A stretch of 64,000 bases of DNA from a virus. Each line of letters starts with the position of its first letter. Within the stretch, counting starts at the first letter, position 1. Below the pieces are notes generated by a model. That model did not search any database. It worked only from the letters and a program-made list of their open reading frames with translations, and was not told where the DNA came from. This document shows positions 1,552-62,356 of the stretch, one piece after another. The position numbers were made by a program, and so were the translations under genes. Where the stretch lies: positions 64,001 to 128,000 of the IMG/VR virus record IMGVR_UViG_3300022752_000019; one strand, given 5' to 3'.

Positions 1552-1578
1552 TAAAAATGTCTCCGATAGAGGTCATAA
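1552..1578 (+). promoter_or_regulatory. Putative phage promoter TAAA-N15-GGTCATAA (copy 1)
   Basis: TAAAAATGTCTCCGATAGAGGTCATAA lies at a divergent junction, 40 nt upstream of an AAGGAG-ATG start; the motif recurs at other divergent junctions. Confidence 0.65.
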
Positions 1579-1617
1579 GTATAACAGCCGGAGCATAACA
1601 CCGGCAAAGGAGATCAC

Positions 1618-1692
1618 ATGGGCAACTATTCCGGCCCCGACGAAGGAGCCTCAAATCCGTTCAAGGACACCGATCGCTTCGGCGATTGGTAA
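1618..1692 (+). CDS. Putative 24-aa micropeptide MGNYSGPDEGASNPFKDTDRFGDW
   Basis: Strong AAGGAG SD six nt before the ATG, directly after the promoter motif. Confidence 0.5.
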   Translation: MGNYSGPDEGASNPFKDTDRFGDW

Positions 1693-1693
1693 G

Positions 1694-1780
1694 ATGGTGC
1701 TGTTTTTCTGGATGGCGGCGATCGTCGCCGCCATCCAATCGTCGAGTGACGTCCTCGAGGACGAGCTTGGCGAGGAGTAG
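1694..1780 (+). CDS. Putative 28-aa peptide with hydrophobic N-terminus and acidic tail (MVLFFWMAAIVAAIQSSSDVLEDELGEE)
   Basis: ATG one base after the preceding TAA, consistent with translational coupling. Confidence 0.4.
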   Translation: MVLFFWMAAIVAAIQSSSDVLEDELGEE

Positions 1781-1791
1781 ACGATTCGGGC

Positions 1792-1826
1792 GCCTCCGAG
1801 CCAGACTTCAGTCTGAGCTCGGAGGC
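1792..1826 (+). other. Strong RNA hairpin (15-bp core stem, extendable to about 1772-1849)
   Basis: GCCTCCGAGC-CAGAC-ttca-GTCTG-a-GCTCGGAGGC; a T-rich tract follows at about 1855. Confidence 0.6.
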
Positions 1827-1925
1827 TTGCCCTCGCGTCCTCACTCTTCAGCACTTTTATTTAAGACGCAGGAAGAAGATACTCTAAAAGAGTACTGTCC
1901 TCTGATCGGCGAGAGGTGCGGAGTA

Positions 1926-2090
1926 ATGGAATGTCGAGGGTGCCCGGCCATCCCAGAAGGAAGATGGATGTGCTCTGTCTGCGCAAAGCCTCACAGTGTC
2001 CAGCCGTTCTGGACGTCGGGACACTGTGATGCCTGCGGCATAGAGTCAAGTTTCCTTTCCCTGGTGCCAGATGCTTCCCTTCGTATGTGA
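1926..2090 (+). CDS. Small Cys-rich zinc-ribbon protein (start uncertain)
   Basis: CRGC, CSVC and CDAC pairs; the frame is also open and Cys-rich upstream. Confidence 0.55.
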   Translation: MECRGCPAIPEGRWMCSVCAKPHSVQPFWTSGHCDACGIESSFLSLVPDASLRM

Positions 2091-2325
2091 CCACTGTGGC
2101 GCAGAGGCCGCGAAAGACGACAAGATGATCAGCGTTGCTCGGCACCGTGTCGTTCGTCGTCCGCGAAAGTGGGACATCGAGGACGAGGCATTTGCCACGC
2201 TTGGAAGCGAGGCCATGTTTCATGAGCAGTGCTTCGTAGACAACGCGCGAGAGATCCTCGCCGCGCTCTACGAAGGTCTTCCGATCGAGCAGCCCAGGAA
2301 GAGACCGGCTTACCTCGTGCGATGA
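2071..2325 (+). CDS. Hypothetical protein, CxxC...HxxC zinc finger
   Basis: FVCDHCG and FHEQC; overlaps the upstream ORF and converges on the portal stop. Confidence 0.65.
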   Translation: MLPFVCDHCGAEAAKDDKMISVARHRVVRRPRKWDIEDEAFATLGSEAMFHEQCFVDNAREILAALYEGLPIEQPRKRPAYLVR

Positions 2326-2327
2326 GG

Positions 2328-4394: not shown

Positions 4395-6250
4395 GACTGA
4401 TTGTCCTTTTTCTGCCCGAACGAACTATCGAGCAAGTTTGCAGCGCCGCCAGCAATATCTGCGCCGATATTTTCAGCAGTCGTTCCAATTGCCATTCCGC
4501 CGACTGCCGGAACAATGCCTTTGGCACTGAAGCCTGATCTGCCCGTGTTGGTGAAGAGATTGGACTTACTGAGCCCGAGGTTTCGTCCGCCAAAAAGATG
4601 ACCCGTTGCCGACGCAGTGCCGGCAACTGCCAGTCCCCTTGCAAGTCTTTCTGCGGTACTTCTCTTCTTTCCGGTTTCTGGATCAACCTCCTCAGAGGCA
4701 GCACCGACTCCTCCCAGAACAGGCGCCGCAACTTCCATTACTCGCTCGCCCGGGCCGTAGTACCACATGCCGCGATTTGTTGTTGCAGTGCCTGCGGCAG
4801 CCTGTTCTTGAGCCCGCCTGCCTAAAGTCCGGTACATGCTCTCGATTTTTCCATAGTCAACATTTTGGCCAGCCTGCGCCGCAGAGTCCATTTCATCAAT
4901 TAAAGACCGCAGGCTCTTAGCGGAGTCTTCGTCAAACGCCACGTTTTGGTACTTTTGCCTTCCAGCACTAAGAAATCCTGACCGGCGCAGACTGTCCACG
5001 ATTCCTGGGGAGCCTTGTACCTCATCAAGGGCTTTAAACTGGTCAACTCTACCAACAAGTGGTTTGTTGGCCGCTGCTTGACTACGCAACGTCTCATCTA
5101 AGTTGCGCAAACTTTCCGACATAAGCTCTACTCGCTTAGACTGCGCAGCCCCTCGTGCAAACTCATCGGCTCCTTCTCCTACGTAGCTTGCACCGGTCCT
5201 TAGCCCACGACCCATTGACGTTATGGGCTTAGTTACGACCTCCTTAACTGTGGTCAAGAACTTACCGGCCCGGGCCGGGTTTCTCAGCAACGCGGCGCCG
5301 ATCAATCCCGCGCCGCCTACAGACACCGGATTAACGTGCTTCAAGATTGGAGACGATGGTTGTTTGCTCTGAGTCCCAGGGATCTGTACCTGATCATCAG
5401 GGTTTATAACGTTGTGTGCCGAAATAGCTTTTGGAACATCCGCAATTCCTGCCGTCTTTGTCGCCTGCAATGAAGCAGTGAACTCAAGCAGATCTCCGAT
5501 GCCCTCCATGAGCTTCGATGCGCAGATGTCGTCAGCAGTCTCTTTAAGCGTATGACCGCCGACCGACAGGGCGCGGACAAGCGCCTTCTGAACTCCCGCA
5601 GTCGGGAGTTTCGTGACGACTTTGACTTTGGAGCCGTTGAACTTCTTTTTTAGCTCCTCATCAGGTTCCATCTTCAGAAGGCTGTCGGTGTTGTAACGAT
5701 CGGTGCAGTAGCTACAGAGACCGTCTTCTTTTGGCTCTTCCTCGTTTCCGCACTCACCGCAGACCTGCGTGACCTTTGAGATCAGGGGGTTGAGGAACTC
5801 CAGCGGCTCAGGCACATACCAGATCCCGGACTCGTGAAGCTGCGCCGCCATGTATCGACGCACCTCCTCAGAGAACTCTGGGATGTCGCCGATCGTTCCA
5901 AGGTCCAATCTGATGCGATTCGCAGCATCCACTGCGAGCATTAGGTCGGAGACCGACTGATTGTCGATGTGAGATACGGACGGGATCTTTCCAACGAGCG
6001 CCTGGGAGACCGTGTGGAACGTCTCCCAGCTCGTCCAAAACTGATCGTGGTTGGCGACAGACACCGCCGCCATCAACTTGATCAGAACTACGCGCGGAAT
6101 GTTGATCTTGAGACGGCTCTCCACTGACCGCTTGATGACAAACGGCTCCCACTCCAACGCACCGACACCGAAGAGTCGGAGGTAGGATCGAAGAAGAAGA
6201 AGCGGGTGCGTCTTCTCATTCTTGAAGGTCTGAAGATCAGTAGCCTCCAT
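4391..6250 (-). CDS. Putative virion protein: Cys-containing N-domain, KTAG junction, then Gly-zipper C-terminal module
   Basis: Likely ATG at 6250 overlaps the upstream gene end; ATGA overlap with portal; CGECG/CSYC; Gly-rich hydrophobic segments. Confidence 0.7.
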   Translation of the reverse strand: MEATDLQTFKNEKTHPLLLLRSYLRLFGVGALEWEPFVIKRSVESRLKINIPRVVLIKLMAAVSVANHDQFWTSWETFHTVSQALVGKIPSVSHIDNQSVSDLMLAVDAANRIRLDLGTIGDIPEFSEEVRRYMAAQLHESGIWYVPEPLEFLNPLISKVTQVCGECGNEEEPKEDGLCSYCTDRYNTDSLLKMEPDEELKKKFNGSKVKVVTKLPTAGVQKALVRALSVGGHTLKETADDICASKLMEGIGDLLEFTASLQATKTAGIADVPKAISAHNVINPDDQVQIPGTQSKQPSSPILKHVNPVSVGGAGLIGAALLRNPARAGKFLTTVKEVVTKPITSMGRGLRTGASYVGEGADEFARGAAQSKRVELMSESLRNLDETLRSQAAANKPLVGRVDQFKALDEVQGSPGIVDSLRRSGFLSAGRQKYQNVAFDEDSAKSLRSLIDEMDSAAQAGQNVDYGKIESMYRTLGRRAQEQAAAGTATTNRGMWYYGPGERVMEVAAPVLGGVGAASEEVDPETGKKRSTAERLARGLAVAGTASATGHLFGGRNLGLSKSNLFTNTGRSGFSAKGIVPAVGGMAIGTTAENIGADIAGGAANLLDSSFGQKKDNQS

Positions 6251-7331
6251 TGTTCGTATCCCTGGACTGCGAGGCGAGCCGTGAGAGGAGGATCTGCTGC
6301 TCAAGAGGCATGCCCTTGAAAGTGCCTACCGGATCACGCCGGAATCGCTCAACTACGCTGTCCTCAAAGACATCTTCCAGTCCGGCGTGGCTTGCGGTGC
6401 TGCCCGAGTACCTCTTGAGCATCGACTCCGTAACGTAATCGCCTCCATGAATCCAGGAGTATTCCGCCTGTTTCTCTGTCCCGTAGACAGCCAGGACGGG
6501 GTCCGGGATGTTGTTGCCGTACCGATTCAGGAGCCCTGCCCTCTCATCCATGAGGAACAGCGTCTCCACGACATCATCGGGATCCATCGCCGCTGCCATC
6601 TTGGAAAGGCGAAGGTAGTCGCTCTGGTACTCTGGATTTGCCGTGTACTCCGCTCTCCGCGAAGCGACCTTCTCGAACCTGGGACTCAGCGTAGTCCCGC
6701 TGTAGCGGAAGATGTGATCCGGGACAACGGCGCCCACCGCACTTGCCAGCTTGACAACATCGACTGCGGCCTCATGACGATCGTAGGGATCCAGGTCGTC
6801 CCACTTGCGAATCGTCTCTGAGATCGCATCAAAGGCCGATGCCTGCTTGACCTGGTGGGCGCCAAGGGGCTGCGACATCCCCTTGCCCATCGGGCGGGCA
6901 ATCTGCGAGGGCTCGAAGGACGCAGTCTTGGCATATTGAGTGCTTGACGCGCTCTTCACCAGCACGCGACGTCCATCTCCCGGAAGGTTCTCGCCCTCGT
7001 TTGCCAGAAGGTACAGCGCGGGATGGGACTGAAGCCCGAGATCGTCAGCCGCGTTCAGTAGGTTTGCTGCGGCAACCTTGACGGCCCCGGCAGGGAGATC
7101 GTGCTCCGCGTTGAGCAGATACCACTGAGACAGGAAGGTGTTCCCGGCGTCGTGGCAGGCAAACTTCCTGTGCTCCTTGCCCTGGCTGTCGACGATGATG
7201 AGCGCAAAGTCCCGATCGTACAGGTCATCGCGCTCCTTCCAAGACGCCGTCTTGAGAAACTCAAGCCCGTCCTTCGGCCCAGAAGCGCGGAACAGATCGC
7301 AGAGGTCGTCGTGCTGGTCTACCACTGGCAT
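6237..7331 (-). CDS. Putative head-associated protein rich in K-x-A motifs
   Basis: ATG 7331 with AGGGG SD; first gene of the portal operon; 10 of 17 Lys are in K-x-A. Confidence 0.7.
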   Translation of the reverse strand: MPVVDQHDDLCDLFRASGPKDGLEFLKTASWKERDDLYDRDFALIIVDSQGKEHRKFACHDAGNTFLSQWYLLNAEHDLPAGAVKVAAANLLNAADDLGLQSHPALYLLANEGENLPGDGRRVLVKSASSTQYAKTASFEPSQIARPMGKGMSQPLGAHQVKQASAFDAISETIRKWDDLDPYDRHEAAVDVVKLASAVGAVVPDHIFRYSGTTLSPRFEKVASRRAEYTANPEYQSDYLRLSKMAAAMDPDDVVETLFLMDERAGLLNRYGNNIPDPVLAVYGTEKQAEYSWIHGGDYVTESMLKRYSGSTASHAGLEDVFEDSVVERFRRDPVGTFKGMPLEQQILLSRLASQSRDTNNGGY

Positions 7332-7364
7332 CTTTTTATCCCCTGAAAGGTCGAGTGCAGGTCT

Positions 7365-7382
7365 CATTATACGCAGTCATAA
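7365..7382. promoter_or_regulatory. Divergent promoter region: AGTCATAA on plus, TATAAT on minus
   Basis: CATTATACGCAGTCATAA lies between divergent starts at 7331 and 7415; the TAAA element is absent here. Confidence 0.5.
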
Positions 7383-7414
7383 GACTTGTAGCACCCTACT
7401 GGAGGTTAGTGCAC

Positions 7415-7822
7415 ATGGGAGCTTTCTCCGATCGGTTTGACCACGAAGACAGCGGGTCATCGCGTCGCCCCGAGTGTTATGGCGACCCGGATTACTACGA
7501 TATCACGGACGAGAGATGCCGGCAGTGTCCGGTAAAGGGTACATGCCGTATCAAGGTTCAGTCATTGGAGCGAGAACAGCGGAGAGCAAGTGCGCCGACA
7601 ACAACGACGTACTCTCCGAGTACCACTCCGGGCTCCGCGTATCGTCCGTCAGTGAAGGCGAAGGTGTATGAGGAACCGGAAGCGGCGGACACATTCACAG
7701 GCGTCCTGGCCTACAACGCGGGTCTAAACGCGATCACGACGATGAGTGAAACGTTGACGGAGGCACTTGCAGGAATTCCTCGCAAGAAATACCCGTCTCT
7801 GAAGAGGAGAAAGGTGGAATGA
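7415..7822 (+). CDS. Hypothetical protein with C-x13-CxxCPV-x3-C metal-binding motif; first gene of replication operon
   Basis: GGAGG SD; CYGDPDYYDITDERCRQCPVKGTC. Confidence 0.7.
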   Translation: MGAFSDRFDHEDSGSSRRPECYGDPDYYDITDERCRQCPVKGTCRIKVQSLEREQRRASAPTTTTYSPSTTPGSAYRPSVKAKVYEEPEAADTFTGVLAYNAGLNAITTMSETLTEALAGIPRKKYPSLKRRKVE

Positions 7823-9192
7823 TCAGGCTGCCGATCTTGGAGGAAGGTAAGGCTTACCGAGGTCGGCATCTCTTTCTGCCGAAGACAAAGGTGAGCCGCG
7901 CGACGATGGAAGGGCTGCTCACTTTCGGAGACGACCCAAGCCGGGGAAGCCGAGGGCTTGTGGTCGAGCATCCGCATCACATCCAGGTGCCGAAGTACGC
8001 GCTCTCTGATGAGCAACTTGCCAAGCTCGGCTGTCCGCTTGTCGAAGAGCAGCGCGTCTACCCAAAGATCAACCTCTCCCGCAAGCCCACCTTTGATCTG
8101 CGGGACAATCAGCTCGAAGCGTGGGAGGCACTGAAGGCAGCAAAGAGGGGGATCTTGAACCTTGCCTGCGGGAAAGGCAAGACCGTCATGGGCTGGAACA
8201 AGGCTGCGCACGAGAAGGTGCCGACCCTCATCGTCAGCCCACAGCGCGCGCACCTGGACAACTGGATTGGAGAGCTTCGGCAGTTCTTTGACTACCCTGG
8301 AGAAGTCGGCTGGATTCAAGGGAAGCGGTTTGAATACGAGGCCGACATCTGTGTATCGACCGTTCAGACGTTGGCAGCACGGGCAGAGGAGGGCACTCTC
8401 CCGGCAGACTTCTACCAGCGATTCGGCCTGGTCATCTACGACGAGTGCCACATCATGGCTGCGGACTTCTTCTCGAAGGCCAGCAGCGTAGGCTCCGGCA
8501 TTCGTCTTGGGCTCACGGCAACCCCAACACGGACAGATCGTTGCGAAGGCATCTTCTACTCTCACCTGGGGCCCGTCTTCTACTCGGACATCAGTCAGGA
8601 CCTGACGCCGACGATCTTCGTCGTCGAGACTGGCGTGTTTTACAGAGAAGAAGAACAGAAGAAGATGCTGGACAAGACGGGGCAGCTAAACGTGGGGCGC
8701 TTGCACAAGACCCTTGCCGAAAACAAGGATCGCAACGCCGTCATTCAGGAAGTCATCGACGAGTGCCTCCGAAGGGGGCGAACAGTCTATGCACTCTCGC
8801 ATGGACCAGAGCACATCGAGGAGTTCCAGAAGGCCAACCCAGGCTCAACCGTGATTCACGGCGGAACGAAGTCAGAGGAGCGGCTGGGTCGCCTGAACGG
8901 CAGCAACTTGGTGTTCGCCTCCGTAGGCGTCGGAGCTGCCGCGTACAACCGCAAGGACCTGGACACCCTCATCCTGATGACGCCCTTCGCCGCGCGGTCT
9001 CACTCGGCGATCACATTCCAACAGAGCGTGGGTCGGATCCTGCGCGCGCTTCCCGGAAAGAAGGATCCATGGGTCTTTCTCATCATGGACAAGTCCGTCG
9101 ACGCATGCAAGGGGATGGTTCACTCCCTCATCCGTGAAAGTCAGCGTCGCGGATATCGTGTCATAACGAGATGGAACTGGAACGCAGTATAG
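7819..9192 (+). CDS. Superfamily 2 DNA helicase (UvsW/XPB-like)
   Basis: LRDNQ (Q motif), LACGKGKT, DECH, GLTATP, QQSVGRILR. Confidence 0.9.
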   Translation: MIRLPILEEGKAYRGRHLFLPKTKVSRATMEGLLTFGDDPSRGSRGLVVEHPHHIQVPKYALSDEQLAKLGCPLVEEQRVYPKINLSRKPTFDLRDNQLEAWEALKAAKRGILNLACGKGKTVMGWNKAAHEKVPTLIVSPQRAHLDNWIGELRQFFDYPGEVGWIQGKRFEYEADICVSTVQTLAARAEEGTLPADFYQRFGLVIYDECHIMAADFFSKASSVGSGIRLGLTATPTRTDRCEGIFYSHLGPVFYSDISQDLTPTIFVVETGVFYREEEQKKMLDKTGQLNVGRLHKTLAENKDRNAVIQEVIDECLRRGRTVYALSHGPEHIEEFQKANPGSTVIHGGTKSEERLGRLNGSNLVFASVGVGAAAYNRKDLDTLILMTPFAARSHSAITFQQSVGRILRALPGKKDPWVFLIMDKSVDACKGMVHSLIRESQRRGYRVITRWNWNAV

Positions 9193-9200
9193 GAGATGCA

Positions 9201-9914
9201 ATGATTGGCTTCAGCGCGCTTCGCGCGCTCAATGACGAGTACAAGAAGTGCTCAAGGTGTCCGCGGCTGTGCGCAAGTCGCACTCAGCCGGTGTTCGGCA
9301 CGGGAAGCATCACGGCGGACATCGTCTATGTGGGCGGGGCCCCTGCCGCCGAGGAGGATGCGGAGGGACTTCCTTTCGTGGGACCTGCGGGCCGGATGCT
9401 TCTTCAGCTCTTTGAGAAGGTCTGGCCCACCGACGACGAGATCGACGCGATTCGGCAAGTCGACGACAACGATCTGTACTTCGACAAACTGTCCGACTAC
9501 ATGACCCAGAGAATCTTCCTCACGAACGCGGTCCTATGTCGTCCCGAGGACGACCGAGTTCCGTCTGCGACGGAACTCAAGGAGTGCCGAGATCGTCTTC
9601 ACCAGACGATCTACGCCATTGATCCCATCCTGATCATTGCCGGCGGTAAGACCGCTGCATCGCATCTGGTTGGGAAGAATGTGAACATCCTCGAGAAGCG
9701 CGGAGAGTTGATGGACATCACCATCACGTCTCCTTCGACTGACCGAGAGGTTCGATACGCCATGCTTCCGGTCCTGGACTGCGGCTTCCTTCTTCGGAAG
9801 GGAGACTCCGCACTTGTCAAGGAGAAGAAGGGGCACACATTCGATACGCTGGGCGACTTCCGCTACGCGCTCGAGATTGTTGACACACACCGCAAGTTGG
9901 TTCGGAGTCTTTGA
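9201..9914 (+). CDS. Family-4 uracil-DNA glycosylase homolog (Fe-S) with degenerate catalytic motifs
   Basis: CSRCPRL, PVFGTG, EDAEGLPFVGPAGRML, TNAVLCRP, ELKEC; GEAPG is replaced by GGAPA and HPA by DCG. Confidence 0.85.
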   Translation: MIGFSALRALNDEYKKCSRCPRLCASRTQPVFGTGSITADIVYVGGAPAAEEDAEGLPFVGPAGRMLLQLFEKVWPTDDEIDAIRQVDDNDLYFDKLSDYMTQRIFLTNAVLCRPEDDRVPSATELKECRDRLHQTIYAIDPILIIAGGKTAASHLVGKNVNILEKRGELMDITITSPSTDREVRYAMLPVLDCGFLLRKGDSALVKEKKGHTFDTLGDFRYALEIVDTHRKLVRSL

Positions 9915-10336
9915 TGGAAAACACCCAGCGCCTTGTCGAGATCTCTCACCGCCTCTCCGACATCACAGAGAGCCTGAAGGCCAGCGAACCGGAGTTGTTC
10001 GAGGAGCTCGAGGCCCTTCGCACAGAGAAGGCGGGTCTGATCGAGAAGGCCAAGCTCGAGTTGCGAGAGGCCGGGGTAGGCACGCACACCATTGGCGGCT
10101 TCAAGATCAAGGTGGCCCCGGGCACCAAGAAGCGGGTCTACAACGTCGACGACATTCAGGAGTTGGCTGAGGAGCTCGGGCACACCGATCTGCTGACGAA
10201 GTACAAGGTGTTCAAGACCGAGGTGGACACCGACCAGATCGAGCGGCTTCCGCCCGAGATCAAGGTCCACTACCAGGACCTCTACACGGAGACGGTACAG
10301 AGCGCGAAGGTGACTCTGCCGAAGGAACTTCAGTGA
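9914..10336 (+). CDS. Hypothetical phage protein (N-terminal coiled coil, Gam/Gp157-like layout)
   Basis: Coupled ORF with strong GC3 codon bias. Confidence 0.7.
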   Translation: MENTQRLVEISHRLSDITESLKASEPELFEELEALRTEKAGLIEKAKLELREAGVGTHTIGGFKIKVAPGTKKRVYNVDDIQELAEELGHTDLLTKYKVFKTEVDTDQIERLPPEIKVHYQDLYTETVQSAKVTLPKELQ

Positions 10337-10653
10337 TCGACATCTCCATCTCAAGTGGAGACGACCGCAGAATCGCGTCCTTCCCCGTAACGCCGGAGAA
10401 CACGGGCATGGCACAGAACGAGTTGTCCAAGTTGATTGGGGACGGTAAGGCATCCGTCAGTTGTGCGGTATCCTTCGCGGACAAGGACTACGGCAACGGT
10501 TACGAGGTAAGGGTCTCAGTCAGCCTTGCCTGCAACCAGGATCGAGGCACGCTTGATCTCGCTGCCGCTGCTGCGCAGGAGATTGCCTCCGTTCATCTCG
10601 AGCAAGCCAAATCCATGGCAGAGGTGATGTATGGAGAACTCTCGAGGAAGTGA
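10333..10653 (+). CDS. Hypothetical protein
   Basis: GTGA overlap with the upstream gene within the operon. Confidence 0.7.
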   Translation: MIDISISSGDDRRIASFPVTPENTGMAQNELSKLIGDGKASVSCAVSFADKDYGNGYEVRVSVSLACNQDRGTLDLAAAAAQEIASVHLEQAKSMAEVMYGELSRK

Positions 10654-10900
10654 TGTCCGCATCGACATCGTCCGCGTAGAGGTCACTCCTGCTTCCGCTG
10701 AGATCAAGGTAGCCTACCTTCTGAGCCTAAAGAACAAGGTCTTTGAGGGTGCGGTTGCCGGAGGGGAGACCCAGTTCTCGAATGAGACACTGGGTCTCCA
10801 GCTCTTAGAGCTGGTTGAGAAGATCCGGGTCCAGATCGAACAAGATCTGGGCCTGACTTCCGCATCAGAGAATTCTGTGGAAGAAGAGGACCCATTGTAA
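10631..10900 (+). CDS. Hypothetical protein
   Basis: GAGG SD; stop overlaps the dnaB ATG (TAATG). Confidence 0.6.
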   Translation: MENSRGSDVRIDIVRVEVTPASAEIKVAYLLSLKNKVFEGAVAGGETQFSNETLGLQLLELVEKIRVQIEQDLGLTSASENSVEEEDPL

Positions 10901-15588: not shown

Positions 15589-15595
15589 TTCATCT

Positions 15596-15626: not shown

Positions 15627-15638
15627 GTGGAGAAGAAC

Positions 15639-20893: not shown

Positions 20894-20896
20894 AGC

Positions 20897-49885: not shown

Positions 49886-50718
49886 CAGAAGTTTTCCTCA
49901 TACGCTTTGTACTTGTCCGCGATCTTCTTCTTGACCTGGGACACCTTAGAGTCACTCCACCCGAGGGAGCGTGCAATTTCGCCGGTCGAGGAGGTCTGCT
50001 TCTTACCGCTTAGTCCGAAGAGGTAGCTGAAGACCTGCTGCTCCTCCGTGGTCAGCTCGTACGGCAACATCTCGACAATCTCACGATGGACGGGAGACAT
50101 TTCCGTAAACGGGTTGAGGTCCATCCCTCCTTCTTCGCCACCGGAGGGGATCACGAAGATGTCCGGGCGCATCTCGAGCTTGAGGCGCTCCACCTTCTTT
50201 ACGCCGATCTTCATCCGGTCTGCAATCTCGAGGCTCGTCGGAGGACGCCCAAGCTCCTCGGTGAGTGAGTCCTGCGTCCGCTGAAGCTCTCCAATCTTGT
50301 GTGCCTGTGCCTCGACGATGCGCGTAAAGTTCTGATGCTTCTTCACGAAGCGGTTGAGCCCGCGCAAGTTTGTCGTCACATGGGTCGTGATCTGCGCCCC
50401 GCGCGACGGGTCGTACTTCTTAAGCGCCTTGACTGTCAGCGCGCGAGCCTCGGCTTCGATGGCAGGTCGATACATGCGCGGAGGCGCATGGCGGTTGACC
50501 TGCGCAGTGATCACCGGATTCAACGAGTTCAAGAGGGGCTGGAGCTTCTCTGGGTTCTCGTTGGAGACCTTCCACTGCCTCCAGAGGTCAAGCTCGGTCG
50601 CAGCCTTTCCGGTGTAAGGCACGGCCTTGCCGGAGGGATCTTTCTGCTCCCAGGTTTCCGGGAACTGAAAGGGATCCTTCTCTGCCAGCTTCTCAAGCCT
50701 TTCCCGGAGAGTTCTCAT
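49885..50718 (-). CDS. RNA polymerase sigma factor, sigma70 family group 3 (FliA/SigB/SigF-like)
   Basis: Region 2 ALKKYDPSRGAQITTHV; region 3 ELGRPPTSLEIADRMKI; region 4 LTTEEQQVFSYLFGL...STGEIARSLGWSDSKVSQVKKK. Confidence 0.88.
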   Translation of the reverse strand: MRTLRERLEKLAEKDPFQFPETWEQKDPSGKAVPYTGKAATELDLWRQWKVSNENPEKLQPLLNSLNPVITAQVNRHAPPRMYRPAIEAEARALTVKALKKYDPSRGAQITTHVTTNLRGLNRFVKKHQNFTRIVEAQAHKIGELQRTQDSLTEELGRPPTSLEIADRMKIGVKKVERLKLEMRPDIFVIPSGGEEGGMDLNPFTEMSPVHREIVEMLPYELTTEEQQVFSYLFGLSGKKQTSSTGEIARSLGWSDSKVSQVKKKIADKYKAYEENF

Positions 50719-51195: not shown

Positions 51196-54100
51196 CTACC
51201 CTCTCTTACCGATTCCGGTGATTGAAGTTACCCCTAACGCGCTGTTTCCGTCAATGGCAGAGACGTAGTCTTTGACCCTTTTTGCGCGCTCAGCACGCGG
51301 GTCAAGTCTGGTAGCCTCCTGCTTGTCGATTGTAAACGGATCTTGGCCCCCGGAGTGCCCAGTGTGCCTAAGCCCGGCATCCAAGATGTCCAGGAACTCA
51401 AGTTCTGTCCCGTAGTCGCTACGGCCGAAGTTTACCGCGTTGGAGTGGAAGCCTCCATAGTACTTTGCATCCGCAGGCAACGGCGAGGGCGGCGGAGGCT
51501 CGACGTTTACGACTGCTTTTTTTGTAGTGTCATACCTGACCCGTTTCGAGCCGAGGACCTCGGAGAACGTCGCAACATCTCTGCGCGTATACTCGTAGAT
51601 CCACTCAAGCGGATCGGGCGCGATCTCTCCAGAAGACCCAGAGTCCACGCGAGCTACCTGCTTTGCGTAGGTGATGCAGAGCTGATCTACGGCCTCTTCC
51701 ACGCTGTTTACTGAGAACTTGGAGTTCTGCACGTCATCGACGATCGCGCGCGTACCGAAGAACGGGTCGTAGATCTCACTCGAAATCCGCTCGGCCCCGT
51801 ACGCATCCGACATCCAAATCGGACGCAGTGACTCCTCGACTGGTAAAATCTTCTCTGGATCGACTTGGCCGCCAAGGTCCGCCTCGAACTGCGAACCGGG
51901 CAGGATTAGCGGCATGTAACTAATAACATATTGTCCACTGTTATAGAAAAACCGTGTAAGCACGATGTCCGTCTCAGAATCCAGCGGTCCGAGATCGAAC
52001 TCAGTTGGAAGCGCCGTGCTGATCGAGATCTCAGTGTTGTCTGTGTCCTCTACGCCGTCACTGGTATCTTGCGCCTCGACTGCCGTTCGGACCCATACAA
52101 GCGTTGGAGTTCCCGTCCACGACCCGGACTTGACGTCCTTGCCTCGGTAACGAACACTCTTAAACGTGGTGACGCTTGTCTCAGCCTCATCGCTGCTTGC
52201 ATCGTAGGAGGCTCCCACTGCGGGAAGGCTGGTTGGGTCAATGACCTGCTTTGGAGTAGCGCCATACTGGACCTCGAACAGCTGCGCGTCGTTCAGAAGA
52301 TCCTCGATCTTAGACCGCTTAAATGAAGCAGCGATCGCCGCCCAACCGAAGTCGAAATCTTTCCCACTTTCGGCTACGGTCCTCTTTTGACCCATCGGAA
52401 TGAAAATCCCTTCACCACCAAGCTGTTGATCCGCTCGAGACGGGTCTTGGATCTCAAGGGTTCCTTCACGGTTAATCAGCGTCGAGAACAGGTCGTCGGT
52501 CTTGTCTCCCGTGCGATGTGACCGAACATGTGTCAGTCGAACCTGGGTCTGCGACCCCGCCTGAGAGATAGAATGAGTGACGGCCTGAACCATTCCCAGC
52601 TTAAAGCTTCGGTTTAGACGAAAGTCAGGGTTGCCTGCCTCCTCGGAGGTAATTACCGCGTCGATGACTACTCCTGGAAAGCCGCAGATGATGTGAGGGC
52701 TAAATGCAAGTGACACCGACGCCTGACGAGCCTGATACCGCTCATTCAGAAGATGGAAGTGCGCAATCTTGGGGGCGTAAAGGGCAAGCTCTCCAGTCTC
52801 GTCCGTCTCAGTCGTCGATGCTCCGGAGTCCTTGTTGATGTAGAACATCGTATCGAGCATGCGCTCAAACTTCGGCACGACTCCGCTGAACTTCTCGTGG
52901 TCGTAGATGATGATCTCGGCCGCACTGTTGAGGCCTTGGCTTTCGAGCGAAGCACGCCCGTTGATCTGCGGAGCGAAGATGGTGTTGCTGACTGCGGCGC
53001 TGTTCTCCGCAAACTCAAATCCGACGTTTAGAGACAGTCGCGAGGTTTCGCGCATCATCTCTCTTTGCGCTGTAAATGCTTGGATCATGTCGGGAAACAT
53101 GACATTGCTGCGCGGAGGGGACACGAACCACACGTCAGGACGTAGAACAAACGAGTGCAGGCGCTCACGCGGACTCGTCGGACCAGAATCCAGCCTTACA
53201 TCCTCAACGGTAGTCGGCGTAACCCCCGGGATGTCTGCGTACTGCACATGAACTGGATCGTTGCCGATTCCAAGGATGGAGTCGAAAAGGGGGTCAATTT
53301 TTTGACCACGGCCAATCTTAAGGAGCACATGAAGCAGAGGGGTCTTGGCCCCGCTTAAGATAGCACCGAATGTCCTCCAGTCCTCTGCAAGGATGAGATC
53401 CGAAGTCAGCAATTCTTGGCTGCTAGAGTAGATCGTGGCGTAGATATCCGGATAGGCAACAATCCGTGCACGGAGCTGTGCAACGTCGGTCACGGAGACG
53501 TCTCTCAGGCTCAGTCGATAAAGGGCGTTTCTGAGCCTCAGATACCAACTTCCTTGACCGTCAACACGCTCCAAGCCCTTCCCCGGTGCGTGCGTCTTAT
53601 AAGGCATTCTCACGTTACCCAGCGCAGGAGCGTCTACCGGGCCCAGGATCTTTGCTTTCGTGACCTTGTCTTGGTCCAGGTATCTAAAGCGAATATCGAT
53701 AGCAAGGCCTCGCTCGTGCGCCGTGAGTGTCTCGTCCCCAGGCGCGTTCTCTCTGTACGCAGACGTGATGTAGACCTCTGCCGGACCTCCCTTCAGAACT
53801 CCACGTCGAAGAGTGTCATCTACTATCTTAAGGAACGGAGTTACCTCGTCTACGAACTTCTTTGAGAGGGACAACGTATTCGCGCGTCCTGACGCCGCAA
53901 ATTCGCTGAAGGTTGCGTCCTGTGACGTCTCTGCCAGTGGGATCGAGAACTCGGGTACGTCCCGATTTGGGTACGTTGGCTTAGTAAGGCTGACTCCTGG
54001 GACATACTTTGCCACAGGGTTCGGCACCATCGCGTACATGATGTAGTTCAGGACAATGTCTACGACCCGCCTGAAGGAGATGACGCTTCCCTCAGAGCCA

Positions 54101-54825
54101 ATCTTGTTCCTGAGCCAGTCGGAGAACTGCACTGCATCGAAGATCTTCGCGGCAGTTTCTCCGGAGTCAGCTACGAGCGTCTCCAGCAGGCGTACTTGCC
54201 GCTCATGGACAGTCGTCCACTGATTGACTCCGTAGGTGTGGCCCTGAACGCCCACCAGTCTTTCGATAATCGCAAGTAGACCTCCCAACACACTCGAGCT
54301 GACGGGGCTGGCGGAACTTGTAGGTCCGAGCTGAGAAAGCTGCCGAATCATCTCGGAGGGCGAGTTGATGATGTTGTCAAACTCAGAGTCCAGCGTTGCA
54401 AGGAACCTCGAGCTGTTTGCTAAGATTGGATTATTTTGGTCATCGCTGGTAGTGAAATTCATGCTGTAGATGTAAGAGGTATCGAGGACGTTCGAGAAAT
54501 CCATGCAGTTGAGGGTTACGGACCGCGACCCCATTCCAACTTTGCTCTGAGAAATGCTGAATACTTCGCCGCAAAACAGCAACCTGTAGTCGCTGTTGTC
54601 TGGGCTACTCTTTCCGCTGTTCTTGAATTTGATGTGGTCAAGGTAGAAGAGGTGGACAATCGTTCTTGGGAGGATCAGGTCTACCGTGTCGTGTGGGACG
54701 ATGTCGATGCTTGCGGTCGCGGCCGTACCTACCGCAGCACTGACCGAGGCTCCGATCACGGGAACTTGGATCCCTTCGAGGTAGAGCCGCAGGTCAAGGA
54801 GGTAGCCAGGCGCAGACTGCATCAT
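51196..54825 (-). CDS. Baseplate hub-like tail protein with inserted M15-family Zn peptidase
   Basis: LRLYLEGIQVPV, LLFCGEV, VTLNCMD; ITSAYR...HERGLAIDI...PVHVQ; GMVQAVTHSIS. Confidence 0.7.
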   Translation of the reverse strand: MMQSAPGYLLDLRLYLEGIQVPVIGASVSAAVGTAATASIDIVPHDTVDLILPRTIVHLFYLDHIKFKNSGKSSPDNSDYRLLFCGEVFSISQSKVGMGSRSVTLNCMDFSNVLDTSYIYSMNFTTSDDQNNPILANSSRFLATLDSEFDNIINSPSEMIRQLSQLGPTSSASPVSSSVLGGLLAIIERLVGVQGHTYGVNQWTTVHERQVRLLETLVADSGETAAKIFDAVQFSDWLRNKIGSEGSVISFRRVVDIVLNYIMYAMVPNPVAKYVPGVSLTKPTYPNRDVPEFSIPLAETSQDATFSEFAASGRANTLSLSKKFVDEVTPFLKIVDDTLRRGVLKGGPAEVYITSAYRENAPGDETLTAHERGLAIDIRFRYLDQDKVTKAKILGPVDAPALGNVRMPYKTHAPGKGLERVDGQGSWYLRLRNALYRLSLRDVSVTDVAQLRARIVAYPDIYATIYSSSQELLTSDLILAEDWRTFGAILSGAKTPLLHVLLKIGRGQKIDPLFDSILGIGNDPVHVQYADIPGVTPTTVEDVRLDSGPTSPRERLHSFVLRPDVWFVSPPRSNVMFPDMIQAFTAQREMMRETSRLSLNVGFEFAENSAAVSNTIFAPQINGRASLESQGLNSAAEIIIYDHEKFSGVVPKFERMLDTMFYINKDSGASTTETDETGELALYAPKIAHFHLLNERYQARQASVSLAFSPHIICGFPGVVIDAVITSEEAGNPDFRLNRSFKLGMVQAVTHSISQAGSQTQVRLTHVRSHRTGDKTDDLFSTLINREGTLEIQDPSRADQQLGGEGIFIPMGQKRTVAESGKDFDFGWAAIAASFKRSKIEDLLNDAQLFEVQYGATPKQVIDPTSLPAVGASYDASSDEAETSVTTFKSVRYRGKDVKSGSWTGTPTLVWVRTAVEAQDTSDGVEDTDNTEISISTALPTEFDLGPLDSETDIVLTRFFYNSGQYVISYMPLILPGSQFEADLGGQVDPEKILPVEESLRPIWMSDAYGAERISSEIYDPFFGTRAIVDDVQNSKFSVNSVEEAVDQLCITYAKQVARVDSGSSGEIAPDPLEWIYEYTRRDVATFSEVLGSKRVRYDTTKKAVVNVEPPPPSPLPADAKYYGGFHSNAVNFGRSDYGTELEFLDILDAGLRHTGHSGGQDPFTIDKQEATRLDPRAERAKRVKDYVSAIDGNSALGVTSITGIGKRG

Positions 54826-59751: not shown

Positions 59752-59777
59752 AAAAAACCCCTGGTTTTAGGTCATAA
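59751..59777 (+). promoter_or_regulatory. Putative phage promoter TAAA-N15-GGTCATAA (copy 2)
   Basis: TAAAAAACCCCTGGTTTTAGGTCATAA followed by TAAGGAGG SD and ATG 59797. Confidence 0.7.
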
Positions 59778-59796
59778 TATAGGTAAGGAGGTGCCT

Positions 59797-60141
59797 ATGT
59801 TTTTGGCTCTTATTGCGTTCGCAGTGGCAAACGTTACCGCAACCACCGCCGCCAAAGTCCGCGAGGACGAGGCGGAGAAGAACGAGCGGCGGGCCTTTGC
59901 CGCCGCCTTGAAGGAGGCGACTGTCCTCCTTCAGGGGGAGAAGGTCAGCCCCTGGGCGGAAAGGGGCTACGAAGACAACGGTGCTCGATCGGTCGTTCTC
60001 CACGGGGTGGAGTTTTTCTTCACGCCCGCGGAGGTCTCGTGGCTGGAAACGGCCACGAGCGGGGGCACTGATTTCAGTGCTCCCGAAGTTGCCCATCTGT
60101 TGGGCAAAGGCCTGCTGCGGGCCCACGCAAAGCCGCAGTAG
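59797..60141 (+). CDS. Monocistronic hypothetical protein with hydrophobic N-terminus
   Basis: Perfect TAAGGAGGT SD, with its own promoter motif and downstream hairpin. Confidence 0.75.
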   Translation: MFLALIAFAVANVTATTAAKVREDEAEKNERRAFAAALKEATVLLQGEKVSPWAERGYEDNGARSVVLHGVEFFFTPAEVSWLETATSGGTDFSAPEVAHLLGKGLLRAHAKPQ

Positions 60142-60145
60142 TAGA

Positions 60146-60167
60146 GCGGGGCCCTTCGGGGCCCCGC
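60146..60167. terminator. UUCG-tetraloop hairpin between convergent genes
   Basis: GCGGGGCCC-ttcg-GGGCCCCGC. Confidence 0.7.
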
Positions 60168-60179
60168 CTCTCAGCGCGG

Positions 60180-60374
60180 TCACGTTAGCTGACATGGACC
60201 GCGCTCTTTCTCATTCGAGAGCGTGAACTTACCCGTCTCTTTAGCTACCAGAAAAGACTTGATGATAGATCGCTCAAACCGCGCCAGCGGCTCAGCTCCC
60301 TGAGACTGAAACCACTTGTCGAACGCCTCGATTTCTCGATCCGTACGATCTAAAAGTTCTTTCTTTGTGGTCAT
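60180..60374 (-). CDS. 64-aa hypothetical protein (MTTKKELLDR...)
   Basis: GGAG SD before ATG 60374; only this 3' part of the 341-aa track ORF is plausible. Confidence 0.6.
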   Translation of the reverse strand: MTTKKELLDRTDREIEAFDKWFQSQGAEPLARFERSIIKSFLVAKETGKFTLSNEKERGPCQLT

Positions 60375-60376
60375 AA
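60351..60376 (+). promoter_or_regulatory. Putative phage promoter TAAA-N14-GGTCATAA (copy 3) for the ligase gene
   Basis: TAAAAGTTCTTTCTTTGTGGTCATAA, 16 nt upstream of the ligase ATG. Confidence 0.6.
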
Positions 60377-60392
60377 CTTCTCCGGAGGTCAC

Positions 60393-61667
60393 ATGGAGTA
60401 TATCACCCTGTACAATCATGCGCGAAACGGCGGACTGCGGATCTGGCAGGTTGCCGTCGTTGGGAACGAGGTCCACACGCGGTTTGGTCAGCTTAACGGC
60501 AAGCTCCAGACCGTCGTGGACTACGGCATGGAGAAGAATGTTGGCAAGACCAACTACATTTCGGCCGAGCAGGATGCTCAGAACATGATGTCTCGGATGA
60601 TCCGCGATCAGAAGCGGCAGGGCTACTCCGAGGACGCCCCGGCGGGAGATGTGGGGTTTGCTCCGTTTGCGGAGCTTCCCGACAATCTGGCCTTCTACAA
60701 GCCGCAGAACACGCTCAGTCCGGCTCTGCGGAAGAAGCTGGACGAAGGCATGGCGTGGGCTCTGCGGAAGTACGACGGCGAGATGATGGTCATCCAGCGT
60801 CGTCTGGACGGTTCGGTGGTTATGTACTCGCGGCGCATGCTGAAGTCGCACCACAACGAGGACATTCCCTGGGCAGAGCGGTTTCCGTTCATCGCCGAGG
60901 AGGCGCGTCGCCTGCCGGTCGGCACGATTCTGCTTGGCGAGGTCACGGGGCCGCACGATCACGATGATCGCTGGCTCGTGGCGCAGGTGATGAAGTCCCT
61001 CACCCCGCGCTCCCTCGAGCTTCAGCAGGAGCACGGGTTCTTGCGCTACCGTGCGTGGGATGTGGCATGGTACAAATACATACAGCTTCTCGGAGAGATA
61101 CAGTATCGCTACAGGTACGACGTGCTCGAAGAGATCGCCGGCACTCACATCCTGGCAGCAGAGGCATTCATCGACTCCGACGTGGAGAGTGCGGATCAAC
61201 TGCAAGAGATGGCCGCCAGGAACAAGTGGGAGGGCTTCGTCATCGTCGATCCCACGTCAACGTACGGAGATCGCGGCTTCAACCTGCGGGGAAAGGCCGA
61301 GCGGCCGTCAACCTGCGGCAAGCTGAAGCCCTTCTTCGAGGACGACTTCATCGCACGCTGGAACCCCGCGCAAGGAGTGGGAAGTCACGGGAGCGGCAAG
61401 TACTCGGGAATGCTCGGCGCAGTCGAGCTCTACCAGTACGACGCCGCAGGAGAGCTGCGATACATCTGCGAATGTGGCAACGGGTTCACGGCCGACTTCA
61501 TCGCCAGGAACTCAGACCCCTCATGCTGGCCCAAGGTCATTCAGGTGCGCTACGAGTCTCGCACCTACATGAGCGAGGGCGATAAGTCCAACGCCCTTCA
61601 GTTCCCGCGCTTCATCGCAGAGCGCGGAGACAAGGACGCGGAGGAGTGCATCAACCCCCTGCTGTAG
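60393..61667 (+). CDS. lig: ATP-dependent DNA ligase with N-terminal WGR-like domain
   Basis: RKYDG, YSRR, LLGEV, AWDV, WEGFVI, KLKP, GSGKYSGMLGA, CGNGF, LQFPRF...R.DK. Confidence 0.92.
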   Translation: MEYITLYNHARNGGLRIWQVAVVGNEVHTRFGQLNGKLQTVVDYGMEKNVGKTNYISAEQDAQNMMSRMIRDQKRQGYSEDAPAGDVGFAPFAELPDNLAFYKPQNTLSPALRKKLDEGMAWALRKYDGEMMVIQRRLDGSVVMYSRRMLKSHHNEDIPWAERFPFIAEEARRLPVGTILLGEVTGPHDHDDRWLVAQVMKSLTPRSLELQQEHGFLRYRAWDVAWYKYIQLLGEIQYRYRYDVLEEIAGTHILAAEAFIDSDVESADQLQEMAARNKWEGFVIVDPTSTYGDRGFNLRGKAERPSTCGKLKPFFEDDFIARWNPAQGVGSHGSGKYSGMLGAVELYQYDAAGELRYICECGNGFTADFIARNSDPSCWPKVIQVRYESRTYMSEGDKSNALQFPRFIAERGDKDAEECINPLL

Positions 61668-61670
61668 TAC

Positions 61671-61703
61671 AAGGTCCCCGCAGATAACTGCGGGGCCTTT
61701 TTT
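61671..61703 (+). terminator. Intrinsic terminator after the ligase gene
   Basis: CCCCGCAG-ataa-CTGCGGGG-CCTTTTTT. Confidence 0.8.
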
Positions 61704-62067
61704 AGCCTCCGAAGATGAATGCTTCCTTCGGATGTCCGGCTTGCTCTTTGGCAGCCTCCTCTGCCCTGCGGGATACCTCGGCCATCTCTTGTTGCTGCCT
61801 GCGATGCGCCTCGGCTCGCCTGCGAATCTGGTGAATCTCTTTGAGCTTCTCTTCCACTGCATCTTCCGAGAAGATGCGCTGCTCGATCAGCAGTGCCTTC
61901 ATCGAGGCAAGGAGGTCATCGTGCGTGGTGGCCGCCTCTCCCAGCACCGCGTCATTGGCAAAGAGAGCCTGAACTTCACGAATGAGGCGATCAATCCCAT
62001 CCGCCTGAACCTTCTCGAGAGTGGCAACTCGCTTCTCGAGCGCGATAATGCGTTCTTCCTGGGTCAT
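61702..62067 (-). CDS. Coiled-coil hypothetical protein
   Basis: GGAG SD and ATGA coupling. Confidence 0.7.
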   Translation of the reverse strand: MTQEERIIALEKRVATLEKVQADGIDRLIREVQALFANDAVLGEAATTHDDLLASMKALLIEQRIFSEDAVEEKLKEIHQIRRRAEAHRRQQQEMAEVSRRAEEAAKEQAGHPKEAFIFGG

Positions 62068-62330
62068 GTCAGCTCCGCTCCAAGGATGACTTTGACTTCC
62101 TTCTCCATCTCAGTGACCCCCTCCTCCAGCTCCTCCACGAACTCCTCAATGAGATCGGTGGAGACGGGGGCTCCCTCACAGGAGATCTGAGCCAGAGGCT
62201 CAGGTACTCCATCACGCGGCAAATAACGCGTGCGAAGAATTTGGGCCAGTGTAGATTGGACCGCGGCGCGCTGTTTGAGTTCTCGAACCTGTGTCAGGAC
62301 AAGGCCAACCGTCTTTGTTGCAGCAGGCAT
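62064..62330 (-). CDS. Hypothetical protein (MPAATKTV...)
   Basis: GGAGG SD before ATG 62330. Confidence 0.7.
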   Translation of the reverse strand: MPAATKTVGLVLTQVRELKQRAAVQSTLAQILRTRYLPRDGVPEPLAQISCEGAPVSTDLIEEFVEELEEGVTEMEKEVKVILGAELT

Positions 62331-62356
62331 AAAAAAGTCCTCCAAATCAGGTATAA
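62330..62356 (+). promoter_or_regulatory. Variant promoter TAAA-N15-AGGTATAA (copy 4)
   Basis: TAAAAAAGTCCTCCAAATCAGGTATAA, same spacing as copies 1 and 2. Confidence 0.45.

Follow-up and report, generated by a model that had tools for sequence, protein, structure and literature searches.

The RNA polymerases (RNAPs) of the phages phiKZ and AR9 come in paralogous virion and non-virion sets of four to five very divergent polypeptides, with the virion copy reading the early genes. The virion RNAP of N4 is a single-subunit, T7-like enzyme with hairpin promoters, which is made late, packaged and injected, and then reads early promoters without help from the host. The virion RNAPs of crAss and P23-45 are sigma-less to our knowledge, and we know of no sigma70-type -35/-10 promoter used by N4, crAss or P23-45. 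Phage factors such as T4 gp55 or SPO1 gp28 and gp33/34 are encoded by early or middle genes and switch on later gene classes in phages that have no RNAP. As far as we know, the multisubunit RNAPs characterised in phages (phiKZ, AR9, crAss, P23-45) are all sigma-less, and the phage sigmas characterised so far all act on the core enzyme of the host. The closest known systems to the one described here are those of Salmonella phage Arash (OQ632216.1; RNAP gp206 plus gp216, sigma gp10; PMC10585845) and of the Vibrio phages D69, D148 and D181. Beyond the Arash annotation, we found no published description of this transcription system, and the word 'promoter' occurs zero times in the Arash paper (PMC10585845).

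Positions given below refer to a window of 64,000 nucleotides, i.e. the whole stretch of DNA analysed, from the 165-kb genome of an uncultured river phage, unless genome positions are stated. As an earlier note on this DNA had proposed, the phage has genes for an RNAP of bacterial type and for one sigma factor of the sigma70 family, both co-oriented with the virion genes. What that note had called an RpoB homologue (positions 1-1551, minus strand) is indeed polymerase, but not RpoB alone: it is the N-terminal 517 amino acids of a beta-beta' fusion of 2119 amino acids (genome positions 59192-65551), with the Pfam domains Rpb2_6 (5e-63), Rpb2_7, Rpb1_2 (3e-31), Rpb1_3 and Rpb1_5 in one ORF, all above the Pfam cut-offs except for Rpb2_7, which is just under. 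By this domain set and the catalytic loop NADFDGD at residues 1402-1408, the protein is an RNAP of the bacterial beta/beta' type, like the homologues in D69 (29% identity over 97% of the chain), and forms a single chain, whereas the Arash enzyme consists of gp206 and gp216, divided behind the catalytic domain. The alignment with beta' begins at about E. coli residue 176 and spans the clamp-helix region, where sigma docks. The second zinc site is present (C1726...C1788-x6-C-x2-C), but no cysteine precedes residue 1726, so the N-terminal zinc-binding domain of beta' is absent, unlike in sigma28 systems. Alpha and omega families (PF01000, PF01193, PF01192) were unmatched in the genome and matched in all 14 control genomes, with the qualification that genome completeness is estimated at 89% (CheckV), so that their absence is not certain. 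Like the phiKZ/AR9 enzymes, this is thus a phage two-barrel RNAP homologous to cellular beta/beta' without alpha or omega. We nevertheless do not assign it to that class, since it is a single fused ORF, a search of the genome found no second polymerase, i.e. there is one set only, and a canonical sigma is present, whereas phiKZ and AR9 have split subunits, two sets and no sigma; moreover, PDB beta' chains match it at an E-value of 1e-120, in contrast to the very divergent phiKZ/AR9 polypeptides.

The sigma factor (277 amino acids; 49885-50718, minus strand) is the one clear sigma in the genome inventory. Region 3 is recognized by Pfam Sigma70_r3 (3e-10; 40.3 bits, cut-off 25.3) and the helix-turn-helix region 4 by Sigma70_r4 (2e-4; 21.2 bits, just below the cut-off of 24.1), and by these two regions the protein is a member of the sigma70 family. 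PDB chains of SigA, RpoS and FliA align to residues 44-274, through region 4. Region 2 is unmatched by Pfam Sigma70_r2 at E <= 1; SigA of T. aquaticus and of T. thermophilus align from residue 44, and the AF2 model (pLDDT 78.5) has confident helices at residues 38-129, which Foldseek superposed on sigma2. About 250 columns of the model aligned to SigD, sigmaS and SigA, with B. subtilis SigD as the top Foldseek match. The N-terminal extension of 38 amino acids ends in GKAA, which is kept in about 20 close homologues and resembles K23-T-A-A of the capsid protein; the Arash and D69 sigmas have no such leader. The gene lies deep in a tail/baseplate operon of overlapping genes, with its start overlapping the upstream gene by 4 nt, and no promoter of its own was found. 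It is orthologous to Arash gp10 (8e-26), and no homologue of the second Arash sigma, gp196, was found in this phage. Two small genes upstream, a virion-type protein of 1209 amino acids (51196-54825, minus strand) is weakly homologous to the structural cell-wall hydrolase gp8 of Arash (colinear segments with E-values of 2e-5 and 1e-4), which itself lies two genes upstream of gp10, with the small gene 9 in between. Thus, sigma follows closely downstream of a gp8-like gene in both phages and, as in Arash and the Vibrio phages named above, an orthologous sigma resides in the structural module and the RNAP gene adjoins the portal gene.

An exact search of the window located GTCATAA where the earlier note had reported it, i.e. 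at 1572, 7376, 9160, 59771 and 60370, always on the plus strand, as part of the 8-mers GGTCATAA (1571, 59770, 60369) and AGTCATAA (7375), with a variant GGTATAAC at 62349-62356. The upstream A-rich element also exists at four sites, with AAAA at -18 to -15 relative to the core G; the cores at 7376 and 9160 have no A-run. The first putative promoter (1553-1586; A-run 1553-1557, core 1572-1578, predicted start A1586) precedes a plus-strand island between a portal-side gene and the RNAP gene, with ORFs of 24 (1618-1692) and 84 (2071-2325) amino acids. The second (7376-7390) heads a 16-kb replication operon (7415-23236), whose products are a helicase, a uracil-DNA glycosylase (UDG), a primase-helicase, a DnaG primase, DNA polymerase A, a UvsX-like recombinase, a Cas4-like nuclease and RusA; its core is matched at the equivalent place upstream of the orthologue in G001, an IMG/VR phage, even though the protein is only 36% identical. 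A putative internal promoter (9160-9174, core only) lies inside the helicase gene at its 3' end, and the UDG gene (9201-9914; PF03167, 8e-21) begins 41 nt further on. The best motif match in the window (59752-59785; A-run 59752-59757, core 59771-59777 followed by TATAGGTA, predicted start A59785) precedes a gene for 114 amino acids (59797-60141) that ends at a hairpin (60146-60167). The next site (60352-60384; A-run 60352-60355, core 60370-60376, predicted start G60384) serves an ATP-dependent DNA ligase gene (60393-61667) ending at a terminator (61676-61704), with the core kept 19 nt upstream of the G001 orthologue. Within this core, CAT is the ATG of a small divergent minus-strand gene (60183-60374), whose stop-free translation of 64 amino acids yielded no family. 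Finally, the variant putative promoter (62331-62458, plus strand; A-run 62331-62336, GGTATAA 62350-62356) has no plus-strand gene or ORF downstream but a 9-bp hairpin with U7 (62411-62458) behind it, and its possible transcript would be an RNA of about 95 nt; the fold z-score of the region (-0.77) was not significant, and an Rfam search gave no match.

Within the 64-kb window alone, GTCATAA is not above chance (5 copies versus 2.86 expected; at least 5 in 15 of 100 shuffles). The genome-wide enrichment check that the earlier note had called for turned out clearly positive, with 26 exact copies versus 7.1 +/- 2.5 and a maximum of 14 in 200 Markov shuffles. As many as 23 of the 26 are on the plus strand and 20 are intergenic, with intergenic DNA making up 8.8% of the genome, and GTCATAA ranks among the most enriched intergenic 7-mers. 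The composite of A-run and G[GT]CATAA occurs 22 times in the genome (0.97 +/- 0.96 in shuffles, maximum 4), and 15 of these sites have a gene on the same strand that starts at most 130 nt downstream (background 8%). In full, the motif reads AAAA-N14-G(T/G)CATAA. Of 25 sites, 18 have T at +13 and 24 have a purine at +14, counted from the core G; this pair occupies the place expected of a sigma70-type start site and is also present in G001, Arash and D69. At three window sites the A-run doubles as the ribosome-binding-site spacer of the divergent gene, a caveat rightly raised in the earlier note; as it also occurs at many non-divergent sites, e.g. behind terminators at genome positions 151-158 kb, it belongs to the motif. 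The densest sites with the best consensus head a terminator-punctuated region of small genes that resembles the earliest class. By genome statistics and gene association, the motif is a strand-specific, gene-proximal promoter-like element of non-structural genes, and very probably a real promoter.

The geometry of the motif recurs, with a shifted core, in three relatives, each time on the respective non-structural strand: G[GT]CATAA in G001 (19 of 20 sites on one strand), GGTATAAG in Arash (40 of 41) and GTTATAAG in D69 (9 intergenic sites), with CCAATAA in Arash and D69 as the upstream element in place of AAAA. Among eight promoter-proximal genes with a G001 homologue, five retain the core at the same place, with proteins only 24-54% identical. 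Such a core, shifted at constant geometry in relatives of other hosts, fits better with a phage-encoded specificity factor than with host sigma70. The sigma28-like character claimed for sigma and promoter is weak, however: among NCBIfam models, FliA/WhiG (TIGR02479) ranks first or second for three sigma orthologues, but its score of 44.8 bits is far below the cut-off of 189.6 and is tied by RpoD_Cterm (44.7). The promoter of sigma28 (FliA/WhiG/SigD) is TAAA-N15-GCCGATAA, which the GTCATAA core matches at only 5 of 8 positions with a spacing 1-2 nt shorter, and the relatives' cores (TGnTATAAG) resemble an extended -10 no less than they do GCCGATAA. What is shared with sigma28 systems is an A-rich upstream element, a -10 ending in ATAA, and a sigma with regions 3 and 4, probably also region 2, and without region 1.1.

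We propose that the non-structural genes, i.e. small host-takeover genes, ncRNAs, and replication and repair genes, have AAAA-N14-G(T/G)CATAA as their promoter, and that it would be read by a sigma70-family factor. CATAA(G/T) would serve as the -10 hexamer, the G two bases before it would take the extended -10 position, the A-run lies where region 4 would touch a -35 element, and the start would be the purine 7 nt past the hexamer. The phage sigma would partner the single-chain RNAP, which lacks the beta' zinc-binding domain and, as far as the searches show, alpha and omega. We infer both this pairing and the recognition of the motif by sigma, and consider it probable that the phage sigma and polymerase read the motif. 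Complex prediction with sigma residues 40-277 and RNAP residues 1100-1500 gave a score of 0.43 (best control 0.00), with runs sharing at least 40% of contacts and a partner pLDDT of at least 69. It lends weak support to the pairing: of 80 solved complexes, 58 pass the mark applied, only 7 of them with scores of 0.60 or less, whereas the 2 passes among 110 mismatches both fall in that low range. With sigma-beta' complexes already solved, a pass may reflect likeness only. Like the T4 and SPO1 factors, this sigma would be a phage-encoded specificity subunit defining a phage promoter class, but it is encoded in the virion operon and the class would be early and replicative.

RNAP and sigma would be produced alongside the virion proteins, taken up into the particle and brought into the cell together with the DNA, which would render early transcription independent of the host holoenzyme. 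This is the logic of the N4 virion RNAP, proposed here for a phage known from sequence alone. Indirect pointers to packaging are the late-operon context, the sigma leader ending in GKAA, and the orthologues in an Arash particle preparation, where mass spectrometry found beta as the top protein (3516 spectra), together with beta' (1210) and sigma gp10 (467; 100% coverage) (PMC10585845). This preparation contained 116 proteins, including ribonucleotide reductase, RNA ligases and helicases, with no mention of gradient purification (PMC10585845); it is not a clean virion proteome, and the presence of RNAP and sigma in it is no proof of packaging. We regard the packaging of both proteins as an even call. 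The same holds for the explanation as a whole, i.e. a motif read by phage sigma and single-chain RNAP that are both virion-delivered. Slightly less than even is our confidence in its most specific form, a minimal sigma-dependent machine in the virion that would consist of one beta-beta' chain and a canonical sigma with a protease-cut head-targeting leader and would initiate from a cognate -35/-10-type promoter.

If sigma, RNAP and promoter were paired but nothing were packaged, host RNAP would have to transcribe the RNAP and sigma genes first, and the GTCATAA genes would form a middle class. Two elements could serve this purpose, an extended -10-like TGTTATACT on the minus strand, 38 nt ahead of the ATG of the RNAP gene, and a TATAAT upstream of position 7331. 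The impure Arash preparation fits as well, and so does the RNAP, in which no N-terminal leader was found and K-x-A tags are sparse. We consider this unlikely, however, because TGTTATACT is not kept in G001, sigma is buried in its tail operon without a promoter of its own, the best motif sites head the apparently earliest region, and upstream regions on the late strand score no higher for sigma70-type promoters than random windows do (means of 5.8 and 6.1, respectively).

The motif could instead be an extended -10-type early promoter of the host holoenzyme, with phage RNAP and sigma transcribing the late genes. CATAAT, TATAAG and, in Arash and D69, TG at -15/-14 resemble the extended -10 consensus of the host, TGnTATAAT, from which the relatives' cores TGGTATAAG and TGTTATAAG differ by one base; the A-run could act as an UP-like element for host alpha; and 5 of 52 early-strand upstream regions reach a sigma70 match score of 9.5 or more, compared with 0.4% of random windows. 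Yet T at -7 is nearly invariant in sigma70 promoters, whereas of the 33 intergenic sites in Arash, 24 have G there and only 2 have T, and in our phage G and T are about equally frequent. TTGACA is absent from the motif in all four phages, including Salmonella-infecting Arash, and the core changes between phages in step with sigma divergence. In addition, no conserved motif that a phage sigma could read was found before the late genes (the lack of a late-gene promoter also counts against our own explanation, as it leaves the transcription cycle not closed), and a late-only sigma inside an operon that needs this very sigma poses a bootstrap problem; host reading of the motif thus appears a little less likely still. 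It is quite improbable that phage sigma redirects host core to the motif while the single-chain RNAP works sigma-less on other promoters in the manner of phiKZ and AR9. A canonical sigma aligned with bacterial sigmas over regions 2-4, the precedent of T4 gp55 and SPO1 gp28 serving host core, and the weak complex prediction would allow it, but each of the four lineages examined has both a sigma and bacterial-type beta/beta', the beta' alignment covers the sigma-docking clamp-helix region, and a search for another promoter class, on which a sigma-less enzyme could act, found none.

Should the reading by a packaged phage sigma and single-chain RNAP hold true, this would be the first virion RNAP that works with a sigma and, among natural sigma-dependent RNAPs, the smallest. 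A clade with a single-chain core, its own sigma and a readable promoter would bridge both phage strategies, and it would reveal how far alpha, omega and the zinc domain are dispensable for promoter-specific initiation. As a natural minimal sigma-dependent polymerase, it could be of use to structural and synthetic biology, the latter as an orthogonal set of promoter, sigma and core. With the promoter consensus, the claim can be tested immediately in relatives that are in culture, Arash (Salmonella) and D69 (Vibrio), and transcription units and several ORF-less RNAs can be annotated in otherwise dark genomes.

A promoter-like motif, AAAA-N14-G(T/G)CATAA with the core GTCATAA, recurs throughout this phage genome (a single IMG/VR contig of 164,603 bp, of which the window is bases 64001–128000; GC 58%, ends overlapping by about 150 bp, completeness estimated by CheckV at 89%). 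The coordinates that the earlier note gave for its copies were all correct on checking; within the window alone, the core occurs five times against 2.86 expected, a count reached in 15 of 100 shuffles and thus not above chance. Genome-wide, 26 exact copies (23 on the plus strand) compare with 7.1 ± 2.5, at most 14, in 200 Markov shuffles, and 20 of these 26 fall in intergenic sequence, which makes up 8.8% of the genome. The core ranks among the most enriched intergenic 7-mers, and for nearly all copies a gene on the same strand starts 20–120 nt downstream. In the site alignment, counted from the core G, AAAA occupies positions -18 to -15 and a W-rich patch -5/-4, followed by G-T-C-A-T-A-A-(G/T); of the 25 sites aligned, 18 carry T at +13 and 24 a purine at +14. 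Promoters of the sigma70 family usually start 7 nt after the -10 hexamer; if CATAA(G/T) is taken as this hexamer, the +14 purine is found exactly 7 nt after it, i.e. at the usual start. When the A-run is combined with G[GT]CATAA, the genome contains 22 sites (0.97 ± 0.96 in shuffles), 15 of which have a gene on their own strand starting no more than 130 nt downstream (background 8%). The best-consensus sites, TAAAAA-N14-GGTCATAAT, are concentrated at genome 147–160 kb, where GC-rich hairpins separate short genes and ORF-less stretches, a gene layout that has the look of an early region. PWM candidates at window positions 19926 and 21706 were dropped, being intragenic and having no matching sequence upstream of their orthologs in G001, a related phage on a 142-kb IMG/VR contig. 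A second intergenic word, (G)TCCTATCA, was also observed at genome 139–159 kb and at window positions 13975 (-) and 44781 (-), with 12 of 14 copies intergenic and several 8–35 nt ahead of start codons; copies in the early-like region are often preceded by TTAGCT.

Within the window, the predicted promoter at position 1572 heads a small plus-strand island between a portal-side gene and the RNA polymerase (RNAP) gene, that at 7376 a 16-kb replication operon with a predicted internal promoter at 9160 before the UDG gene, that at 59771 a gene for 114 amino acids, and that at 60370 the DNA ligase gene, whose unit ends at a clear terminator. The transcripts predicted at window 59785–59799 and 60384–60395 have leaders of 9–12 nt starting with AAGGAGG or GGAGG and would thus begin almost at the Shine–Dalgarno sequence, a pattern repeated at other sites here as well as in Salmonella phage Arash and Vibrio phage D69. 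In the ligase promoter, the CAT within the GTCATAA core doubles as the start codon of a divergent 64-aa gene (window 60183–60374, minus strand), so that promoter occupancy and transcription or translation of the opposite gene may interfere mutually. A variant promoter at window 62331–62458 (plus strand), between two minus-strand genes, combines a good A-run with GGTATAA at 62350, the core type of Arash. It has no ORF downstream, and about 60 nt further on a 9-bp hairpin with a U7 run suggests that it may produce a small RNA of about 95 nt (62364–62458); the fold z-score of this candidate (-0.77) is not significant, and an Rfam search of the whole window gave no matches.

Window positions 1–1551 are the beginning of a single ORF (genome 59192–65551) for a 2119-aa protein that unites beta with beta' domains, the two parts being joined by a linker of some 90 aa. 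Bacterial beta' chains match it with an E-value of 1e-120. It retains NADFDGD as well as the second zinc site of beta', whereas the beta' N-terminal zinc-binding domain is absent, since no cysteine precedes residue 1726. Neither a second RNAP set nor detectable alpha and omega subunits were found in the phage genome at its estimated completeness. A K-x-A tag was considered for the RNAP, where an N-terminal TKEAI is conserved, but this motif belongs to the conserved N-terminal part of beta and such tags are sparse, so that a leader is unsupported.

The product of window 49885–50718 (minus strand) is a 277-aa protein of the sigma70 family, with a clear region 3 and a region 4 that narrowly misses the cut-off. 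It aligns over its full length with SigA, RpoS and FliA, and its AF2 model (pLDDT 78.5) is superposed by Foldseek over about 250 columns on SigD, sigmaS and SigA. The NCBIfam models FliA/WhiG and RpoD score equally at about 45 bits, with cut-offs near 190–380 bits. This is therefore a divergent sigma below the cut-off of the FliA/WhiG family: the group-3 architecture proposed earlier stands, but a sigma28 identity is not demonstrable. The gene overlaps the preceding one by 4 nt in a long tail/baseplate operon. Two small genes upstream of it lies the gene of a protein of 1209 aa with weak homology to Arash gp8, which itself is two genes upstream of the Arash sigma gp10, with gp9 alone in between. 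The sigma shares with some 20 close homologs a 38-aa N-terminal leader that ends in a conserved GKAA; the Arash and D69 orthologs lack this leader. It resembles K23-T-A-A of the capsid protein and may serve for head targeting or cleavage. As for a second sigma in this genome, Arash gp196 gives no tblastn match, weak region-4-like matches at genome 7978 and 22315 are an unassigned short reading frame and a ParB-like protein, respectively, and the product of window 6237–7367 is not gp196-like. Arash gp196 itself (L006:20656-21693 in the Arash genome) is a second, more RpoD/RpoS-like sigma encoded in opposite orientation to the adjacent helicase genes and is not among the proteins of the particle proteome (PMC10585845).

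At the nucleotide level, the RNAP/sigma region matched none of 50,697 phage records, and relatives are visible at the protein level only: for the RNAP, Vibrio phages D69, D148 and D181 (29% identity over 97%) and Arash; for the sigma, Arash gp10 (28% identity, full length, E 8e-26) and, more closely, G001 (57%). For a comparative test, genes were called and upstream k-mers ranked in each relative. G001 has G[GT]CATAA with unchanged AAAA-N14 spacing, and one strand bears 19 of the 20 copies. The top 7-mer in Arash is GGTATAA, with the consensus tCCAATAA-N13-tGGTATAAGtaaagTGTAA; 40 of its 41 copies share a strand with the metabolic and replication genes. Another Arash k-mer, TAACTAAC, proved to be stop-codon/terminator context. 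D69 has AATAA-N13-tGTTATAAG at nine intergenic sites, again on that type of strand. In all four phages an A/T-rich patch spans -18 to -14, the core contains ATAA, and T at +13 is followed by a purine at +14. Eight promoter-proximal genes of this phage have a homolog in G001; five of them have an equivalently placed core there, although the proteins are just 24–54% identical.

In four riverine metatranscriptome runs, contigs of at least 99% identity cover genome 154783–155260 (L002:15784-16260), where a gene for 140 aa follows the promoter at 154757, so this phage, or one very closely related to it, was present in these libraries. Three contigs begin 12–30 nt past the predicted start and one crosses the promoter, at most a weak hint of a start; contigs cover only 5–9% of the early region, and the gaps carry no meaning. 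The k-mers enriched ahead of late-strand genes, here and in G001, amounted to nothing but the early core in reverse complement, at divergent junctions. Host sigma70 promoters heading the late genes are unsupported, since a scan of 17 late-strand upstream regions for TTGACA-N16-18-TATAAT, a consensus that may not be the host's, scored 5.8 versus 6.1 in random windows.

Who reads the motif promoter? The phage sigma together with the single-chain RNAP, both brought in by the particle, would be our preferred answer, to be weighed against a host holoenzyme acting on an extended -10-like early promoter, the phage sigma on host core, and de novo synthesis of RNAP and sigma without packaging; jointly, these three fall somewhat short of an even chance. 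With respect to the host, Arash intergenic sites carry G at -7 in 24 of 33 cases and T in two, and no TTGACA, though the host is Salmonella, and the core changes from phage to phage alongside sigma divergence. This pattern, itself a correlation, fits better with a phage-encoded specificity factor than with host sigma70. One early-strand gene of D69 (L023:23371-23910 in D69) is annotated as a T4 Srd-like anti-sigma factor, which would suit shut-off of host holoenzyme in this phage group. As to the core enzyme, complex prediction for the sigma with the beta' clamp region scored 0.43 (best control 0.00; at least 40% of contacts shared between runs; partner pLDDT at least 69), a level at which only 7 of 80 solved complexes lay, together with both mismatches that passed. 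It hints weakly at a sigma–beta' clamp pairing, and as sigma–beta' complexes have already been solved, the pass may reflect likeness alone.

On possible packaging, the one paper found in the library searched to touch such a system is that on the Arash genome. In the Arash particle preparation, the most spectra came from the beta subunit gp206 (3516), with 1210 for beta' gp216 and 467 for sigma gp10 at 100% coverage; the list for this preparation, however, runs to 116 proteins, including ribonucleotide reductases and RNA ligases, and no gradient step is mentioned (PMC10585845). Early transcription is offered there as one reading, and promoters are not discussed (PMC10585845).

Since RNAP and sigma are both made alongside the virion proteins, the simplest explanation is that they travel as cargo in the particle and would start the next infection. 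Such a system, known here from sequence, would be alike in logic to the virion RNAPs of N4 and phiKZ and in chemistry to a bacterial holoenzyme; being fused, single-set and sigma-bearing, its RNAP is not of the phiKZ/AR9 type. G001, together with 46 sigma homologs from metagenomes whose contigs reach 168 kb, shows that the clade is uncultured and sizeable.
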